Below are positions 1,592 to 10,284 of a stretch of DNA of 64,000 bases, piece after piece. Position numbers and translations under genes: made by a program. The stretch comes from an uncultured Methanoregulaceae archaeon (GTDB lineage: Archaea > Halobacteriota > Methanomicrobia > Methanomicrobiales > Methanospirillaceae). How positions within the stretch are numbered: position 1 is the first letter of the stretch; every line of letters starts with the position of its first letter. The notes beneath the pieces were generated by a model. That model made no database searches. It saw only the letters and a list, made by a program, of their open reading frames with translations, and was not told where the DNA came from. Location of the stretch: NCBI GenBank assembly GCA_963701095.1, contig OY969564.1, forward strand, positions 576,001 through 640,000, read 5' to 3'.

Positions 1592-2496
1592 TTGGATATG
1601 GTACTTGAATTCCTGATGTATAAGTTCGGTATCCGGGCTCTTATTGGAGGGCTGATCGTTGCCGTCACCTGCGCAAGTCTCGGAGTATTTATTGTACTGC
1701 GCCGGCTGTCCCTTATTGCAGATGGCCTTGGCCACGTCGCTTTCGGTGGTATTGCCCTTGGATTCTGGACAGGGATATATCCCCTCTATACGGCTGTTGC
1801 CTCAGTCATTGCCGGATCGCTTGGAATCCATGCACTTGGCCGGCTCCGGGTCGCCTCAGATGCAGCGATAGCTATTATGTTCTCTGCCGGCCTCGCAATC
1901 GGCGTTGTCCTTATTAGTTTAGCACAGTCTGCACCTGCCGATCTCCTCTCATACCTGTTTGGGACTATCCTTGGAATCAATGACAATGATGTCATTCTTG
2001 CAGCCTGTCTTGGGATCATTGTGCTTGTGCTCCTTTCCCTTTTGTGGAAGGAATGGATCGCTATAACCCTTGACCCGGATTTTGCCCGGTCGCCGGGATG
2101 CCCGTATCCATTCTTGAAATACTCTTTACGATCCTTGTCGGACTGACTGTTGTCGTCACTACACGTCTTGTCGGTGTGCTCCTTGTGTCAAGCTTGATGG
2201 TCATACCGGCAATAGCAGCAATCCAGCTCCGGCTCCCTTTCCGCAGGACCGTATTTGCAGCGCTGTGTATGGCAATTATTTCAGTCATTGTTGGGCTCCA
2301 GCTCTCCTTTTCGTATAACCTTGCGTCTGGAGGGGCAATCGTTCTTGTCACCATTGTTTTCTTTATCCTAACAACACTTGTATCCCGGCTTTTACCCCGT
2401 ATCAAACGGGAACTCCCGGTTGAACCCTGGGAACACCAGTGCCTGGTACCTCTGTATGAGCCCGCTGATAAGAAAAACGGTGAAAATAAGATATAA
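1592..2496 (+). CDS. znuB: Zn/Mn ABC transporter permease (ABC-3), split by a 1-nt deletion near 2090
   Basis: ADGLGHVAFGG and LLSYLFGTIL in the first frame, VGVLLVSSLMVIPA in the second; adding one G after CCGG restores FARVAGMPV. Confidence 0.88.
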
Positions 2497-2561: not shown

Positions 2562-3715
2562 TCAAAAAAAAGACCGTATCCCGGAAAGAAGCAGTGGTGA
2601 AAAGAAGTGGAGGAGCGAGGGGTTTCTCATGAGCACCCCGGCAATTTTTGCAGGCCGGTCCATATCCCCGTAGCGGATAATTGCTTTAATAGTTGCCGGG
2701 TTGTTCATTACCTGTATCATCTCGTCGATAGTCTTCACAGAAAGATGCTGACGCATCAGGAAGAGCCGGTACCCCAACGCAAGTTCCCGACCCATGTCGG
2801 CCTGCCAACGTTTCTCGTATTCAGCAAGGGCAGTGTCAGAAAAATCATCCTGTTCACAACATTCCACTGCCACCGCAGCAGCGTGGCGGGCTGAACGAAC
2901 CCCCGTATACACACCGCCTCCCGATGTGGGTTTAGCAAACCCGGCTGCATCCCCGACAAAGAGAGTCCGTAAACCATACGTCCGGGGCATAATGCCAAGC
3001 GGGATAGTTCCGGTGACACAATGCAGGTCAGAGCGAAGACCGATTCTTTTTATAAAGACGGAAAAAAGGTGACGGGCATTCGTTTTTCCACAGAGTCCCA
3101 CTCTCACCCGGCCGTTCCCGGAGGGAATTACCCAGCCGAAAAATTCCGGTGCAGCATCAGGGTACAGCTCAACAAGACCCGGATCGCTGTTGTACATACC
3201 CTCAGACTGGATACCGGCAAGATAAACCGGCGATCGCTCCATACCATGAAAACGGGCGATAGTACTCCGGGGACCGTCTGCAGCAATCAGGATCTTAAAC
3301 GGGATCTCGCACTTTCCGTCAATTCCCCGAGTAAGGACGTGGTTATTTTTCACACCACAGACAACATTCTTTAGCATAAACTCTGCTCCTGCATCCGCTG
3401 CCGCCATCGCCATTTCACGGTCAAGCATTGCCCTGTCAACAACACAGGCTTTAGGCGTTTTTGCATCAATAACAAGTGCAGATCCAAAAGAGGGTACAAT
3501 GCGGGCCCCGGAAACGATATTCAGTATAGGTTTCCGGGAAACTGCGCATTCCTCGAATGCAGCAAGAGACAAAAGACCGGCACATTGTACGGGGTAACCG
3601 ATACTTCCCTGCTCTTCAATACAAAGAACAGAGAGTCCGCGTCGAGCGCAGACATGTGCAGCTGCGCTGCCGGCAGCCCGGCACCGGCGACAACAACATC
3701 ATAGGCCGGGGGCAT
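2562..3715 (-). CDS. Geranylgeranyl reductase family FAD-dependent oxidoreductase, 1-nt deletion near 3677
   Basis: N-terminal YDVVVAGAG Rossmann motif in ORF 3521-3715; IAADGPRS, FGWVIP and VGDAAGFAKPTSGGG in ORF 2562-3572; the sequence between reads AGSAAAHVCARRG..PVQCAG. Confidence 0.85.
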
Positions 3716-3730
3716 AAAAAGAATCCTTAC

Positions 3731-4330
3731 TTATTTTGACTCTTTTCCGTCGTTATGATCGGCGGAATTTATCTGGATCTGGCAGGTTCTGATGATAAAT
3801 GTTCGGGGCGTTACAGGAAGGATTTCTCCCTCCTTTATCGATAACCCCATGAGGATCGCAAAAAGCCCAAGCACAAGCGAGATCGTCCCTACTAAAGTCA
3901 TAATAAAGAAAGATCGCATAACAGGTACATAGGTAATGAAAATAAGAAACAGGATAATGCTACTTGCAATAACCACAATGACCATAAGATACTTTGATTG
4001 TGGCCTCGTTAATGCATACGATATTCCGGTATAGCCAGCATAAAGAGCAAGGAAACCAACAACAAGGATAAAAATCAAAGACATGGTTTCGGGAAACAAA
4101 AGCTCAACAAGACCGACGACCAGAAGGGCTGCAGAACAGAGGAACCAGAAAATGGATTCATCCGCATGAGCAGTGATAGCTACTAATATGCAAAGGATAA
4201 ATGCACCTATAAGAAGAATCCAGAATACGCCGGTAAAGAAAGCAAGAACTTGCGCCGGCACAACAAGTGCGAGACCCCCGAAGATCACGCCTGTCAACCC
4301 TTTTAAAAGGTGAGACAGTTTAGCATCCAT
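3731..4330 (-). CDS. Multi-pass membrane protein, HdeD/DUF308-like
   Basis: About 6 hydrophobic segments with a GxxxxxFGxxALxxP pattern. Confidence 0.6.
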   Translation of the reverse strand: MDAKLSHLLKGLTGVIFGGLALVVPAQVLAFFTGVFWILLIGAFILCILVAITAHADESIFWFLCSAALLVVGLVELLFPETMSLIFILVVGFLALYAGYTGISYALTRPQSKYLMVIVVIASSIILFLIFITYVPVMRSFFIMTLVGTISLVLGLFAILMGLSIKEGEILPVTPRTFIIRTCQIQINSADHNDGKESK

Positions 4331-4680
4331 AGGAATACGTCGATGTGATCGCGTTAATAGTTTCTTATACTAATGCAAGGGCCGGTCCGGATCTTGTGCT
4401 CTGATAAGAATTTATAATTGTTAGGGATTCCTTAAAATAAGCTTTGACTGAAGCATTTAAAAAAAACGAAGCAGCGACAAGCGCCCAACTGGCAGCCACT
4501 CTTGTTGCGTTTGTGATTGCTCCAAACTTTGCGTAAATTTATTCACCGTGTCCTCTCTTTCTGGATGTTTTGATCAGGATTTGAGGTCAACGGATTGGAC
4601 GCGTTCCTAATCGCATACCATTTACATTTCCGTATTCTGACAAAATGCTTGCCAGTACTCCCGGAAAAAGCAGGCGCATT

Positions 4681-4905
4681 TTAAAGTCGCCCGAAGCCGA
4701 AAAAATCTATTCCCAACAGTTTTTCCATAACATAAAGTATAGCAAAGAAGAACACCGCGTAGAGAATAAAATTGACCACAAAATTTACCCAACCGGTCAC
4801 ACCGGAATTATTCATAATCATATTAGAGAGCGCATTTGCGATGACAATTGCACAAAGAATTCCAAGGAAAAAAATAATCCATTTTTTGACTTCGACAAAA
4901 TCCAT
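4681..4905 (-). CDS. Small 2-TM membrane protein
   Basis: 74 aa, ATG start, two hydrophobic helices. Confidence 0.6.
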   Translation of the reverse strand: MDFVEVKKWIIFFLGILCAIVIANALSNMIMNNSGVTGWVNFVVNFILYAVFFFAILYVMEKLLGIDFFGFGRL

Positions 4906-5085
4906 ACAGATTATTGGCGCCTACACCTATTAAAACTCTCAAAAGAGTGACAGTATATATTTTTTGTTGGTTCATGCACACTGCTCCTCACTAGTTATGC
5001 AATCGGTTCTCTTGCGTACGGAAGGAAAGTATTTGACTATCCGCTTCCAATCTCACAGACGGTATATTAAGAAAGGAATTTTCCT

Positions 5086-5433
5086 ATGCCAAAATCCAAC
5101 AGCCGCCAACTGTTACGTGAAATTCTCGCGGAGATGGTCCGGATCTCGCAATTAACTTCGGGACGCCAGTACGAGAATTTTTACCGTGATGAAAAAGATT
5201 ATGCAAGCCTTGCTGGCAGCCTCAGAATAATTAGTGAACGTGTGCGTCATGTCCCGACCATTATTCGCGTAAAATACGCACTTGTACCATGGAATGAACT
5301 TTCGGAATTAGAAGAGAAGATTTCCGGAACGGACCCGGTTAACCGGCCCAGGATTCTCTGGAAAATCGCCACCGAGACGCTGCCGCGTATCAGGCCAGTA
5401 CTCGAAAACCTGGAAAAGGAAATGGAAGTATAA
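5086..5433 (+). CDS. DUF86/HepT-like HEPN domain protein, catalytic motif degenerate
   Basis: LRIISERVRHVP..KYALVPW..ILWKIATETLPRI matches the DUF86 scaffold; no RxxxxH motif. Confidence 0.65.
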   Translation: MPKSNSRQLLREILAEMVRISQLTSGRQYENFYRDEKDYASLAGSLRIISERVRHVPTIIRVKYALVPWNELSELEEKISGTDPVNRPRILWKIATETLPRIRPVLENLEKEMEV

Positions 5434-6097: not shown

Positions 6098-6226
6098 ATT
6101 TTTTCCTGCTCCTGCTCCTGCTCCTTTTCAAACAATCCACTGTCAAAACATAGGAGAATGGTATTGATATACGAACATTAAAAAAAGGCAGGTGCAAGAA
6201 GTTATAATCGGGAGTGAAATACGAAC

Positions 6227-7534
6227 ATGGAAGCAAAGAGCGAACGAAAAGACGGCGTACTTATCTTTTTTATCAACGGACGGCTGGATGCATTCGGTGC
6301 TCAGCAGCTGGATGAGTGGATAAAAGGAACCCTCCAAGATGACGATAAAGAACTTGTAATCGATTTATCCGGATCTACGTATCTTTCAAGCGGCGGGCTG
6401 CGAACTTTTAGTATGCTTAAAAAAGAGATGAAACGCCGGAACGGGCGCTTTGCACTTGCAAATGTGGGAGAATATCCAAAAAAAGTGCTTGATATGGCCG
6501 GGTTCTCCACGATTCTTGAGATCTTTCCAACAACTGAGACCGCAGTAGAAGATATGAGAAAAAAGAGAAAAAACCCGACCCTTTTTAACGAAATCTTTTA
6601 CAAGAAGATTGAAGAAGAAGGGGTCTCTCTTATTATTGAACCTGGCTGGATGATCAGCCCGCCAACGCTCCGGATTACGGGAGATCTTACAAAAGTCTTG
6701 CATGCCCGGCTTACCGAAGCAGACATAAGGGAAAAGCAGTTTTCCGAGATTACGTACTCACTTGGTCTCGGTGCACTTGGAGCCAATAAAAAAGAGGCCA
6801 TGCCTCTGCTCGGTGAAATGATTACCCTGTACGGCTCTATGGTCTGGCTACCTACAGACGGTAATAACACCCCGGACTTTCTTACACCAATGGATACCAA
6901 AGGAGATGTCCCGGTGTACACAGGGTATAATGTAACGCTTGACGGCCCGTTCAACGAGTACCTTACCCTTGACACTGTGGATCCCAATGGCGTCAGTTTG
7001 GGTGACATTTATCGAACTATCTTTTCCAGTGCCAGGAACAGGGTTAAAATCTATAAAGGAGTCGTCGCGGTTTCCATCTGGGGTGTGATTGCCGGTGTTG
7101 CAAGTTCGGGAATTAAAAAAGCGCCTGTTGCCCAATCGTCACTTCCCGCAAAAACAACGATTATGGACCCGGCGTACTCGGCACAGTGGATGGCTTCTGA
7201 TACTAGTATGTCCTATAAAGGAGACACACTGGTTAGTTTTGGTTTTGGGATTGACTGCGAATATACCACAGCAGGCTTCAAACAGGAGCATCTCGATTCC
7301 CTGTTCTACACAAATCCTGCAAACAAATCCTCCTCAAAGATGATGTACCTTCACAACCACGGTGTAATCTTCCGTGGTGTCCCCTACGACGCATCGCTTG
7401 ATTTAAACACCCAGGTAAAAAAGATCATCAACGAAGCCACCTTTGTGGATATGCGCCATCTCCTGGACAGCACCCGGCTTCGCCGTGCAAAGATCGGCGT
7501 TGCTTATGTCCAGGATATCGTCCGGGAACCCTGA
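6227..7534 (+). CDS. STAS (anti-anti-sigma type) domain fused to an ~320-aa acetolactate-decarboxylase-like domain
   Basis: N-terminal GRLDA...IDLSGSTYLSSGGLR STAS motif; C-terminal LGLGALG..GEMITLYG..TDG, HNH and RHLLD. Confidence 0.8.
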   Translation: MEAKSERKDGVLIFFINGRLDAFGAQQLDEWIKGTLQDDDKELVIDLSGSTYLSSGGLRTFSMLKKEMKRRNGRFALANVGEYPKKVLDMAGFSTILEIFPTTETAVEDMRKKRKNPTLFNEIFYKKIEEEGVSLIIEPGWMISPPTLRITGDLTKVLHARLTEADIREKQFSEITYSLGLGALGANKKEAMPLLGEMITLYGSMVWLPTDGNNTPDFLTPMDTKGDVPVYTGYNVTLDGPFNEYLTLDTVDPNGVSLGDIYRTIFSSARNRVKIYKGVVAVSIWGVIAGVASSGIKKAPVAQSSLPAKTTIMDPAYSAQWMASDTSMSYKGDTLVSFGFGIDCEYTTAGFKQEHLDSLFYTNPANKSSSKMMYLHNHGVIFRGVPYDASLDLNTQVKKIINEATFVDMRHLLDSTRLRRAKIGVAYVQDIVREP

Positions 7535-7543
7535 AAATAGTGA

Positions 7544-7978
7544 TCAAGAAACCGCATCTTTTTGCTTTTTTTTCGTGAAGATCAGGATATTCTTTTCGTC
7601 TTCATACCGGTACGTGACGGTATCAGTAACCTGACGGACCAGATAGATACCAAGGCCCCCGGTTTTGCGTTCTGCAATTGAAGAGGTAATGTCTGGATCG
7701 GGTACGGTTAAAGGGTTAAATGGCGGGGCTTCGTCAACAATCTCTACGGTCAGGAGATCCGTATCTGCTATGCTATGAATGCTGATCAAACCTGGACTAC
7801 CACAAAAACCATGTCGGATGATATTAGTAATGATCTCTTCAACGGCGAGCTGGATATCAAGAACTGCCTGATCGCAAAAACCGGCTAGTTGCATGAACTG
7901 TTCAATCTCATGTGCAACAGCAGGCATCGCATCGAACCGGGCAGGAATTACCATGTCTGCAGTAGCTGCCAGGATCAC
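7544..7978 (-). CDS. RsbW/SpoIIAB-like anti-sigma Ser/Thr kinase (HATPase_c_2)
   Basis: N-box LAVEEIITNIIRHG, IVDEAPPFNP and G-box GGLGIYLV; start is GTG 7978 after GGAGG or ATG 7954. Confidence 0.88.
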   Translation of the reverse strand: MILAATADMVIPARFDAMPAVAHEIEQFMQLAGFCDQAVLDIQLAVEEIITNIIRHGFCGSPGLISIHSIADTDLLTVEIVDEAPPFNPLTVPDPDITSSIAERKTGGLGIYLVRQVTDTVTYRYEDEKNILIFTKKKQKDAVS

Positions 7979-8175: not shown

Positions 8176-8532
8176 GTGGATATAACAACTACTACCCATG
8201 ATACTGCAGCCATTCTTACCGTGAAAGGTCGTGTGGATGCTTTAACTGCCGGTGACCTCGAAAGTGCTATTAATACTATCATTGACAAGGGCGACCGGTG
8301 TATTATTCTTGATTTTTCCGGACTTACCTATATTTCAAGCGGCGGCCTTCGCGTCCTTTTGGCTACAGCAAAAAAACTTCAGAACAATGGTGACCGTTTT
8401 ATGCTCTGCGGCCTCTCTATCGATGTGCAAAAGGTCATGAATCTTGCCGGTTTTACAGCAATCTTCTCTATCTATTCCTCAGCATCCGAAGCTCTAGACG
8501 CAGTAAAAAAACCAGTAAAACCCCATTCCTGA
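8176..8532 (+). CDS. STAS domain anti-anti-sigma factor (RsbV/SpoIIAA-like)
   Basis: KGRVDA, LDFSGLTYISSGGLRVLL; GGGAGG upstream of the GTG start. Confidence 0.9.
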   Translation: MDITTTTHDTAAILTVKGRVDALTAGDLESAINTIIDKGDRCIILDFSGLTYISSGGLRVLLATAKKLQNNGDRFMLCGLSIDVQKVMNLAGFTAIFSIYSSASEALDAVKKPVKPHS

Positions 8533-8564: not shown

Positions 8565-9326
8565 TTACTTTTCTTTTTCTGATTTTCCTATTGTGGCAAG
8601 ATAGATCAGGAAATGGTTAACACCGTCAATCCCAAGGATGGATGCCATGATGTCGTCATCGAACGCTGCAACAGCACACACGCCACATCCGATAGCCTCA
8701 GCTGCCAGGTACAGGTTCTGGCAGACATGACCTGCATCGAGGTGAAGGTCCCGGAATCCACGTTCCCCATACCGCCATGTCATCCGGTAGGGAATTGCCG
8801 TCCAGAGAAATGCAACACCGCACCGCATGATAAAATCCTGGTCAAAACATGCATGGGTAATATCGATATGCAGGGATGGATCATCGGAAATACGCTGGAG
8901 GCTATGGGAAAGTGCAAGGAACCGGTATAATCCCGGTACCAATCCGTGGACGTCATTTACAAGAAGATAGGTCTCAAACGCATGGCGCGACCCTGCCGAA
9001 GGAACTGTCCTGAATGTAACCTGGGTTCCATGCACTTTTTTGACACCTTGAGTGCACCAGAGAAGAAAGGAAAGTTCAACAAGGGAAAGCGGCATCCTTT
9101 CGTAGGATCTCACACTACGCCGCCGTTCAATGGCCATGCGCAGATCTATGGGAGGAATTACAAGATCTGTGGGTTTTGGGAGATCGATTACCGGCTTCCC
9201 GGGGTTTTTTGGTAGTTCGAGAGGGGGTTGGGGAAGACCTTTTTCTTGGTCAGAACGATCAAGGAAACGATATTTAGTCCTCTCCATGAATTCTTGGCCA
9301 GCACTTGGAAAAGAATGTTCTGTCAT
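8565..9326 (-). CDS. SagB/ThcOx family nitroreductase-like dehydrogenase
   Basis: RRRSVRSY, RTVPSAGSRH, WRYGERG, LDAGHVCQNLYL. Confidence 0.9.
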   Translation of the reverse strand: MTEHSFPSAGQEFMERTKYRFLDRSDQEKGLPQPPLELPKNPGKPVIDLPKPTDLVIPPIDLRMAIERRRSVRSYERMPLSLVELSFLLWCTQGVKKVHGTQVTFRTVPSAGSRHAFETYLLVNDVHGLVPGLYRFLALSHSLQRISDDPSLHIDITHACFDQDFIMRCGVAFLWTAIPYRMTWRYGERGFRDLHLDAGHVCQNLYLAAEAIGCGVCAVAAFDDDIMASILGIDGVNHFLIYLATIGKSEKEK

Positions 9327-9467
9327 ACGGTAACGATCTACGGCCGATTCCTGATAGTCCTTGTGCCTGCTGGTATGACTCAAGTTAAGTACCAAAAGTT
9401 TACCTGCATTCAGGGTAATGGATATCAGGCCAAAAAGAAAAACATTGTTTTTAAAAAAGGATAACAG

Positions 9468-10284
9468 ATGTCAGGAAATTGCATACACAGGCCAATATGC
9501 GAACCACCGCTCATTGAATTTGAAAATGTCACTATAGTCCGGGGTGAGTGCCGTGTACTCGATGCTGTCACCCTCTCCCTGCGAGAAAGAGAAAACATTG
9601 CCATTCTTGGACCTAACGGTGCAGGAAAATCCTCACTGGTAAAAGCCATTACCCGGGAGTATTATCCGTTGATAACAGATAGGTCTGTGAAATTCCAGTT
9701 CCGGGGAAATGATACCTGGGATATCTTCGAGCTGCGGTCGTTTATTGGTATTGTATCAAACGATCTCCAGTTCACCTTCACCCGAACTATAACCGGCCAC
9801 GAAGTGGTACTTTCCGGGTTTTTCTCAAGTATCGGTCTCTTTAATCGGGACATCTCCCCTGCCATGGAAGAAAAAGCAAAAGAGATTGAACAGTTGCTTG
9901 GGATTAGTCAGCTTCAGCTGTCGTCCTATGACCTCTTTATCGTCCGGAGAAGCCCGGAGGTTCCTGATAGGAAGAGCGCTTGTTCCTGGCCCGGCAACCC
10001 TGCTCCTTGACGAACCCACAAGCAACCTCGACCTTTCTGCCCTGCACATGTTTCGCAATATGTTAAGAAAAATAGCACAGGCAGGGACAGGTATTGTCCT
10101 GGTGACACACAACCTCCACGATATCATTCCGGAGATTACCCGGATCATTATGATGAAAGACGGGAGAATTGTTGGCGACGGTGAAAAAACGCTCATGCTC
10201 ACGAATGAGAAGGTAGAAAGCCTTTTCTCGGTACCTGTTTCTATCCAGGAAGAACACGGTTGGTATTATGCAACGGGATACTAA
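9468..10284 (+). CDS. ABC ATP-binding protein (ModF-like), 1-nt insertion near 9914
   Basis: GPNGAGKS in frame 1; LSSGEARR, LLLDEPT and VTHNLHD in frame 2. Confidence 0.82.

Follow-up and report, generated by a model that had tools for sequence, protein, structure and literature searches.

The gene described here occupies positions 6227..7534 on the forward strand of the window, a stretch of 64,000 nucleotides from an uncultured Methanoregulaceae archaeon (NCBI GenBank assembly GCA_963701095.1, contig OY969564.1, positions 576,001 to 640,000). As read from the list of open reading frames (ORFs) and their translations, it encodes a protein of 435 amino acids in which a STAS domain is followed by a linker and by a C-terminal domain with the predicted fold of alpha-acetolactate decarboxylase (ALDC) and PTD012. 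The STAS domain, of the SpoIIAA/RsbV type, covers residues 5-106 (6239..6544, forward strand). The linker, delimited on AlphaFold2 models, spans residues 107-146 (6545..6664, forward strand), and the C-terminal domain, delimited on the model together with Foldseek and VIA-align comparisons, extends from about residue 147 to residue 435 (6665..7531, forward strand). A gene for an RsbW/SpoIIAB-type serine kinase of 136 amino acids (HATPase_c_2, E 1.2e-25) lies on the reverse strand at 7544..7954; it is convergent with the STAS-fusion gene at a stop-to-stop distance of 9 bp, and its start was placed by comparison with 51 orthologues. Divergent from the kinase gene is a second, single-domain STAS gene of 118 amino acids at 8176..8532 on the forward strand, which matches PF01740 (E 1.8e-20) and carries the SSGGLR motif.

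The ORF of the STAS fusion is intact, with an ATG start and 435 codons, and most of the 120 relatives among the matches listed are 434-436 amino acids long. The C-terminal domain is present in a single copy in the host genome, which is Methanoregula-like, consists of one contig of 2.63 Mb and is estimated to be 86% complete. Close relatives are publicly named Methanoregula STAS or 'anti-anti-sigma factor' proteins, names that mention STAS only. The original prediction, made by a model from the letters and the ORF translations, had described a phosphorylatable STAS domain fused to an ALDC-like metalloenzyme domain. All of the strings that it quoted are found in the translation, under the residue numbers it had assigned: YLSSGGLR at 52-59, LGLGALG at 179-185, LLGEMITLYGSMVWLPTDG with E197, VAVSIWG, GDTLVSF, LHNHG with H376 and H378, and RHLLD with H411. 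Two copies of the 10-mer ATACGAACAT, 50 bp apart, precede the gene at 6169-6178 and 6219-6228, the second of them overlapping the ATG, and an A/T-rich TTATAA box lies ∼20 bp ahead of the start. The repeats and the box may mark a promoter or operator of the archaeal type, in which case the leader would be very short.

The call of an N-terminal STAS domain holds, as PF01740 covers residues 5-106 with an E-value of 1.1e-19 and 70.6 bits against a cut-off of 22.6. The residues of this domain also score 56.4 bits with TIGR00377, the model of anti-sigma factor antagonists, for which the cut-off is 53.45, and the only PDB sequence matches of the entire protein are TM1442, SpoIIAA, RsfB, and RsbV (E 6e-8 to 3e-3). 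The predicted phospho-acceptor is Ser55 (codon 6389..6391, forward strand), which is aligned to the D-S-A-G-L serine of TM1442 and occupies what we take to be the position of the phosphorylated serine of SpoIIAA. All 50 STAS-fused relatives have Ser55, and 90% or more of them also have S54. It is quite likely that Ser55 is phosphorylated by the adjacent RsbW-type kinase.

Residues 115-435 gave no Pfam or NCBIfam match at E <= 1, and the whole protein returned STAS alone. The C-terminal domain likewise had no PDB match, either by phmmer or by a profile built from an alignment of 73 sequences, for which 35 out of 35 matches were to STAS. The ALDC family model, PF03306, found no match on the protein at E <= 1 or in a six-frame search of the host genome at E <= 0.01, a search to which three control genomes responded. 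The DUF1907 model, PF08925, found none on the protein at E <= 1 or in the host genome, and its one control responded below the cut-off. A feature search of the ESM Atlas returned small phage proteins with best scores of at most 0.83, under the meaningful level, and these were discarded. Searches for relatives of the domain itself were productive: a word-indexed search with residues 115-435 returned 890 proteins at E <= 1e-3, and in an exhaustive search the relatives formed 267 clusters at 50% identity, of which 104 have E <= 1e-10. The conservation figures given below refer to the alignment of 73 full-coverage relatives, which has a mean column identity of 23% and in which the glutamate and histidine positions singled out by the original prediction are among the best conserved columns. 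The C-terminal match and its conservation pattern are far beyond chance.

The AlphaFold2 model of residues 115-435 is of high quality, with a mean predicted local distance difference test (pLDDT) of 94.2 and a predicted template modeling score (pTM) of 0.92. In this model the domain is a two-lobed beta structure in which each lobe has the AF0104/PPC fold. The 12 best PDB matches of the model in Foldseek are all ALDC, with E-values from 1e-9 to 1.5e-6 and TM scores of 0.61-0.71 normalized to the target; human PTD012 follows at 1e-5, and then single-lobe AF0104/PPC-type proteins. Structural alignment with VIA-align gives Z scores of 17.6-18.9 against ALDC entries, with 205-211 residues, nearly the entire ALDC chain, aligned at 2.7-3.1 Å. 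The Z score is 15.7 against PTD012/C11orf54, with 246 residues aligned, 7.6-9.6 against single-lobe AF0104/PPC proteins, and at most 3.6 against all other chains. Of the two outcomes that would have contradicted the original prediction, a fold unrelated to ALDC and a lack of conservation of the glutamate and histidines, neither is seen; the top structural matches are all ALDC. The model indicates that the domain almost certainly has the ALDC-superfamily fold, and the assignment is as secure as a predicted model can make it. On this predicted structure, residues ∼147-435 found a previously unannotated family, one that has no Pfam or NCBIfam model, within the AF0104/ALDC/PTD012 superfamily.

The active site of ALDC provides the reference for the residues of the new family. 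For the Enterobacter enzyme, the literature lists the zinc ligands His199, His201, and His212, the tail residue Glu259, and Glu70, Arg150, and Thr63 (PMC9090609); the catalytic glutamate is given there as Glu65 in B. brevis and Glu70 in E. cloacae. A profile of 20 archaeal PF03306 proteins was aligned with the new family by hhalign in local mode, and the resulting match is weak and positionally exact (E 0.0031, probability 10%, 204 columns). The motifs come in the same order as in ALDC, with GLGALG...LGEM on GLGTF...DGEM, VAVSIWG on YAIRIDG, GDTLVSF on GTIVGF, and LHNH on YHLHF, while the K-K-[SA]-P around K298 falls on T-R-S-V-P of ALDC. A segment alignment by hhalign (E 0.015, 27-column match) sets DMRHLLD on GGHVLD and with it H411 on the third zinc histidine. 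By these alignments E197 (6815..6817), K298 (7118..7120), the H376-N-H378 pair (7352..7360), and H411 in RHLLD (7457..7459), all on the forward strand, would correspond to the catalytic glutamate, the arginine at position 145 or 150, the H-x-H zinc ligands, and the third zinc histidine of ALDC, respectively.

Conservation of these residues agrees with the assignment. E197 is kept in 88% of the relatives (64/73), H376 in 77% (56/73), H378 in 85% (62/73), and H411 in 75% (55/73), so that the three histidines that the profiles place on the ALDC zinc ligands are all present and 75-85% conserved. The basic residue at the position of ALDC Arg145 is Lys298 in the STAS-fusion protein; the column holds lysine in 32 and arginine in 20 of the 73 relatives, together 52 (71%), and P300 close by is found in 67. 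The glutamate and the three histidines occur jointly in 51 of the 73 relatives, namely 19 of the 22 stand-alone and 32 of the 50 STAS-fused proteins, and all four are invariant (15/15) in a separate alignment of stand-alone proteins. The spacing from the HxH motif to the third histidine is longer than in ALDC, as had been predicted: H378 and H411 are 33 residues apart, compared with 11 in ALDC, and the model accounts for the difference by a loop and a helix at 384-403. Conserved, family-specific insertions at ∼300-321 and 344-372 contribute to ∼85 extra residues with conserved positions of their own (P300, P306, I312, P315, W321, F360, Y361, and P364), and these insertions probably reshape the pocket. 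By analogy with ALDC, H376, H378, and H411 would hold a divalent metal, presumably zinc, and the presence of a functional metal site is very likely.

The adjacent kinase retains the GHKL signature, with E40, N44, D74, G99, G100, and G102 invariant in 33 sequences. Conservation of the locus was assessed in the best 80 related loci in reference genomes. In 55 of them, essentially the whole Methanoregula clade, the same position holds a convergent HATPase_c_2 kinase, and a separate downstream second STAS gene is found in 47 (best match per locus counted). The association with a kinase also recurs independently. In a Halobacteria locus (L098), a STAS-domain-TCAD9 gene has a convergent kinase of 31% identity, and in a bacterial locus (L107, 5809-7393) a stand-alone domain gene is directly followed by a HATPase_c_2 kinase, with no STAS gene among the scanned neighboring ORFs of at least 80 amino acids.

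The host genome harbors one small RsbW-type kinase, that at 7544..7954; its 11 further HATPase_c_2 matches, all weak, fall within long frames of histidine-kinase size. There are four STAS matches, with three soluble STAS proteins, and one SpoIIE-type PP2C (E 2.2e-51), which belongs to a HAMP-PP2C protein unlinked to the STAS-fusion locus. The PP2C locus (L102; G000:C1:2570500-2577500) contains ORFs at 1901-2902 and 2899-4104, and the PP2C start overlaps the preceding ORF by 4 bases. The preceding ORF has a sub-threshold dCache match of 40.9 bits against a cut-off of 45, and the pair may represent two coupled genes or a single sensor phosphatase that is split. No Sigma70_r2 match was found in the host genome at its estimated 86% completeness, in a search to which controls in 10 bacterial genomes responded.

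Complex prediction for the kinase and the full-length STAS-fusion protein gave a score of 0.50, compared with 0.00 for the best control. The mark of 0.50 is reached by 116 of 157 solved complexes and by 2 of 215 mismatched pairs, and among those that reach it, scores of 0.60 or under come from 18 of the 157 solved complexes and from both mismatches. Contacts are shared between runs to at least 96%, and the partner has a pLDDT of 79 or more; no interface was given, and binding to STAS and binding to the ALDC-fold domain are not told apart. As SpoIIAA-SpoIIAB complexes have already been solved, the score may reflect likeness only, and the prediction weakly supports the pairing of the kinase with the STAS fusion. 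The adjacent kinase probably controls the STAS-fusion protein.

The domain is reused in several architectures. Among 36 relatives scanned with Pfam, 13 combine STAS with the domain, and in 14 the domain stands alone with no Pfam match. Six have the order STAS-domain-TCAD9, one is domain-TCAD9, and one is STAS-domain-Pkinase; TCAD9 is a kinase-like family. The remaining relative, P0249, is a metagenome protein of 1837 amino acids in which SIR2, STAND NTPase, HEAT, and histone deacetylase domains precede an ALDC-fold domain at the end, an arrangement characteristic of conflict or defense systems. The best 80 related loci all belong to Halobacteriota (Methanoregula, Methanolinea, Methanocalculus, Methanocorpusculaceae, Methanophagales, Methanolliviera, and a Halobacteria metagenome-assembled genome). 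Full-length STAS fusions are present in 16 of the 151 sampled genomes of the host phylum, or 17 with one contig-end fragment. On metagenome contigs (L107, L108, L109, and L112), stand-alone domain genes are located between rpmH-rnpA-yidD-yidC-mnmE and large Peptidase_S8 genes. Since rpmH-rnpA-yidD-yidC-mnmE is a bacterial arrangement, the family spans archaea and bacteria. For the distant relatives, a cluster look-up of 10 representatives returned hardly any taxonomic names, one of them being 'Halobacteriota archaeon'.

Canonical PF03306 genes have a distribution of their own, occurring in all five of the other sampled genomes of the host family and in 55 of the 151 of its phylum, with none in the host genome. 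At least 11 sampled genomes, for example, G064, G013, G088, G096, and G135, hold both a STAS fusion and a canonical PF03306 gene. At their N-terminus, the archaeal PF03306 proteins have a hydrophobic stretch that resembles a signal or lipoprotein sequence, suggesting that methanogens have exported ALDC homologues.

The STAS-fusion protein is probably a two-module signaling protein, in which a STAS switch is joined to a metal-dependent, beta-keto-acid-decarboxylase-like domain that is switched by STAS phosphorylation. The RsbW-type kinase encoded tail-to-tail would act on Ser55 of the STAS module, and the kinase and the HAMP-PP2C phosphatase together would set the phosphorylation state of this residue. 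That state, or the binding of the kinase to unphosphorylated STAS, would switch the attached enzyme-like domain via the flexible linker, and the output of the partner switch would be the STAS protein itself, in an apparently sigma-less organism. The analysis shows the domain architecture, the fold, the retention of the site residues, and a kinase neighborhood that is conserved; we infer phosphorylation by the adjacent kinase, metal binding, catalysis, and the direction of information flow. The target of the STAS switch may thus be an enzyme instead of a transcription factor.

The chemistry of the domain is suggested by its two-lobed relatives. C11orf54/PTD012 is a beta-keto-L-gulonate decarboxylase (BKGD) that shares the fold and has a His3-Zn site, and its reaction is chemically parallel to that of ALDC, both being zinc decarboxylations of beta-keto acids, according to two reports (PMC12337341, PMC12435205). 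Because both characterized two-lobed families, ALDC and C11orf54/BKGD, are zinc-dependent beta-keto-acid decarboxylases, decarboxylation is the likeliest chemistry for the new family. The ALDC residue pattern is kept and the ALDC and BKGD reactions run in parallel; a beta-keto-acid decarboxylase-like enzyme with a different substrate is therefore predicted. An ALDC-type site, with H376, H378, and H411 as metal ligands beside E197 and the basic K298, would carry out metal-assisted decarboxylation, or a close reaction, on a beta-keto or alpha-hydroxy-beta-keto acid that is not acetolactate. The reuse of the domain with the eukaryote-type kinase domains TCAD9 and Pkinase, and in the SIR2-STAND-histone deacetylase conflict protein is the reason for considering that it may make or destroy a small-molecule signal and have no housekeeping role. 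In its most extended form the proposal is tentative and rather unlikely: in sigma-less archaea the RsbW/STAS/PP2C switch would have been rewired, such that Ser55 phosphorylation or kinase docking toggles a STAS-borne member of a new family of decarboxylase-like enzymes with such a signaling role.

A possible, if unlikely, alternative is that the ALDC-fold domain binds a metabolite or metal at the His3/Glu site without turnover. Occupancy of the site would alter the engagement of STAS with the kinase, and the real output would lie elsewhere, for example, in the single-domain STAS proteins or in another kinase target. In 7 of the 36 scanned relatives, six with TCAD9 and one with Pkinase, the domain is flanked by STAS and a kinase-like domain, as would suit a sensor; the flexible linker is compatible with freeing or occluding STAS, and no metabolic operon surrounds the gene. 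Among the single-lobe AF0104/PPC relatives, with their Z scores of 7.6-9.6, we know of none that is a decarboxylase. Conservation argues against pure sensing, as the full ALDC-type catalytic set is retained beyond the metal ligands (glutamate 88%, lysine or arginine 71%), and stand-alone forms keep the site (19/22; 15/15), as suits an autonomous enzyme. Both characterized two-lobed families are, moreover, enzymes. On balance, the C-terminal domain is slightly more likely to be catalytic than purely ligand-sensing.

Several observations weigh against a STAS-switched enzyme. At least one of the four residues is missing in 22 of the 73 relatives, including a STAS-fused subgroup of 460-475 amino acids, and the fold can therefore work without the site; such a loss is what is commonly seen in enzyme families that have inactive offshoots. 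The threonine of the ALDC GLGT motif is absent, its position being A183 here and alanine in 51 and glycine in 18 of the 73 relatives. There is also no conserved counterpart of the ALDC tail glutamate (Glu253/259): the STAS-fusion protein terminates two residues beyond the last strand, and its E434 is glutamate in 15 of the 73 relatives. Homology to ALDC rests mainly on the predicted structure, because no ALDC or DUF1907 sequence model detects the domain and the hhalign probability is 10%. In P0249 the domain occupies the C-terminal end, the typical place of a sensor, a position that speaks for ligand sensing. The kinase gene is convergent with the STAS fusion and not co-transcribed with it, and no kinase was found beside the domain gene in 25 of the 80 loci, mostly in other genera. 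The full-length AlphaFold2 model (pLDDT 92.2) has both domains well folded and a linker composed of a helix, a low-confidence hinge at 116-121 (pLDDT <50), and two extra strands. The pTM falls from 0.92 for the C-terminal domain alone to 0.72 for the full-length protein, which leaves the mutual orientation of the domains unfixed, and no allosteric path is therefore visible. Finally, neighboring genes give no clue to a substrate at the host locus, at divergent archaeal loci, or at bacterial loci. The neighbors at 11 divergent archaeal loci are unrelated (TauE, CorA, DHquinase, transposases, and others), and the rpmH-yidC-mnmE and Peptidase_S8 surroundings of the bacterial stand-alone genes contain nothing metabolic.

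It is improbable that the domain is a genuine but divergent ALDC (EC 4.1.1.5) under STAS control. Such an enzyme would account for the best structural matches being ALDC, for a pattern of glutamate, basic residue, and three histidines that is of the ALDC and not the BKGD type, and for a host genome that lacks the canonical PF03306 gene present in 5/5 other genomes of its family. However, PF03306 does not detect the protein, the ∼85 extra residues carry family-specific conserved positions, the threonine and tail glutamate of ALDC are absent, and the HxH-to-histidine distance is 33 instead of 11. Because at least 11 sampled genomes hold both genes, the STAS fusion is not a general replacement for ALDC. 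Very improbable is an arrangement for which we know of no precedent, in which the ALDC-fold domain is the protein sequestered by the RsbW-type kinase, as a stand-in for sigma, with the fused STAS as an antagonist in cis and phosphorylation determining which of the two, STAS or the enzyme domain, the kinase occupies; it would suit a host genome without a sigma factor for the kinase to bind and the L107 stand-alone gene, which is without STAS and directly followed by a kinase, but a kinase neighbor occurs at only one of the six stand-alone loci with scanned neighboring ORFs, and canonical STAS-kinase binding is a simpler reason for the adjacency.

The remaining genes near the locus are varied. 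A metal-uptake cluster of ZnuA, ABC ATPase, and ABC-3 permease genes lies at 3-2496 on the forward strand, ∼4 kb upstream of the putative metalloenzyme gene, and its permease is broken into ORFs at 1592..2146 and 2098..2496. Another split gene, for an orphan ModF-like ABC ATPase, lies at 9468-10284 (forward strand), where it extends over the overlapping frames 9468..10010 and 9886..10284 and looks frameshifted; an intact-looking homologue is present downstream of the locus in 36 of the 80 related loci. Since both the permease and the ABC ATPase are split in a one-contig genome that is 86% complete, assembly indels or pseudogenes are suggested. Convergent with the second STAS gene is a SagB-type dehydrogenase of the nitroreductase family at 8565-9395 on the reverse strand (TIGR03605, 128 bits), which is kept at the locus in the closest relatives only (12/80). 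Upstream of the STAS fusion, a HepT-like RNase toxin ORF is found at 5086-5433 on the forward strand (PF01934, 26 bits) with no recognizable MNT antitoxin, and the ORF of 101 amino acids that precedes it, at 4645-4950 on the same strand, has no Pfam match.

Partner switching is a textbook mechanism of bacterial sigma-factor control. The role of its STAS, RsbW, and PP2C parts in archaea, which are without sigma factors, is, judging from full-text searches, essentially unstudied. The STAS-fusion locus offers a concrete candidate for an output, an enzyme-fold domain carried on the switch, and its host genome has a single kinase and a single phosphatase of this kind. The new domain also represents the third two-lobed family of the ALDC/PTD012 superfamily, the second of which was assigned its function only in 2025. 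Methanoregula-type methanogens are major producers of methane in peat and wetlands, and a regulated metabolic step in these organisms would be of ecological interest.

Full-text literature searches outside subscription journals returned no report of a STAS-ALDC-fold protein or of a like archaeal partner switch. Among related systems, ALDC itself (AlsD/BudA, PF03306; PDB 4BT2, 6J92, 5YHO, 6INB, 5XNE, and 1XV2) has the same two-lobed beta fold, with 205-211 of its ∼210-238 residues aligned, and the same motif order, with the glutamate, the basic residue, the HxH pair, and the third histidine in register. In contrast with ALDC, the new domain is ∼85 residues longer, in four insertions or extensions, is fused to STAS, and is not found by the family hidden Markov model; its third histidine follows HxH by 33 and not 11 residues, alanine or glycine replaces the GLGT threonine, and a conserved C-terminal glutamate tail is lacking. 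PTD012/C11orf54 (DUF1907, PF08925; PDB 1XCR) shares the superfamily fold with the greatest aligned length, 246 residues, and was likewise missed by annotation for years, but the superposition has a root-mean-square deviation of 4.3 Å at 8% identity and there is no PF08925 match. C11orf54 has histidine and arginine where ALDC has arginine and glutamate, as stated in PMC12337341, whereas the new family has arginine or lysine and glutamate at these positions, as in ALDC. The AF0104/PPC proteins (PCC, DUF296; PDB 2H6L, 2DT4, 3HTN, 3HWU, and 2P6Y) have the fold of each lobe, but they are single-lobe proteins of ∼140 amino acids, whereas the new domain is a tandem two-lobe unit like ALDC.

On the signaling side, the locus resembles the SpoIIAA/RsbV-SpoIIAB/RsbW-SpoIIE/RsbU modules in its conserved-serine STAS domain, its adjacent small GHKL serine kinase, and the PP2C in the genome. 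It differs from these modules in its archaeal host without a sigma-70 match, in a STAS domain that carries an enzyme-like domain of 290 residues, and in genes that are convergent or divergent instead of forming one operon. That a STAS protein can itself be the output that an RsbW-like kinase regulates has a precedent in CapK, which phosphorylates the STAS-containing repressor CapS with no sigma factor involved (PMC13373217). CapS binds DNA and acts as a repressor in the immune operons of bacteria, whereas the corresponding module here has a metalloenzyme fold and belongs to a methanogen. The STAS-fusion protein combines a new family within a known superfamily with a known switch that is wired in a new way.

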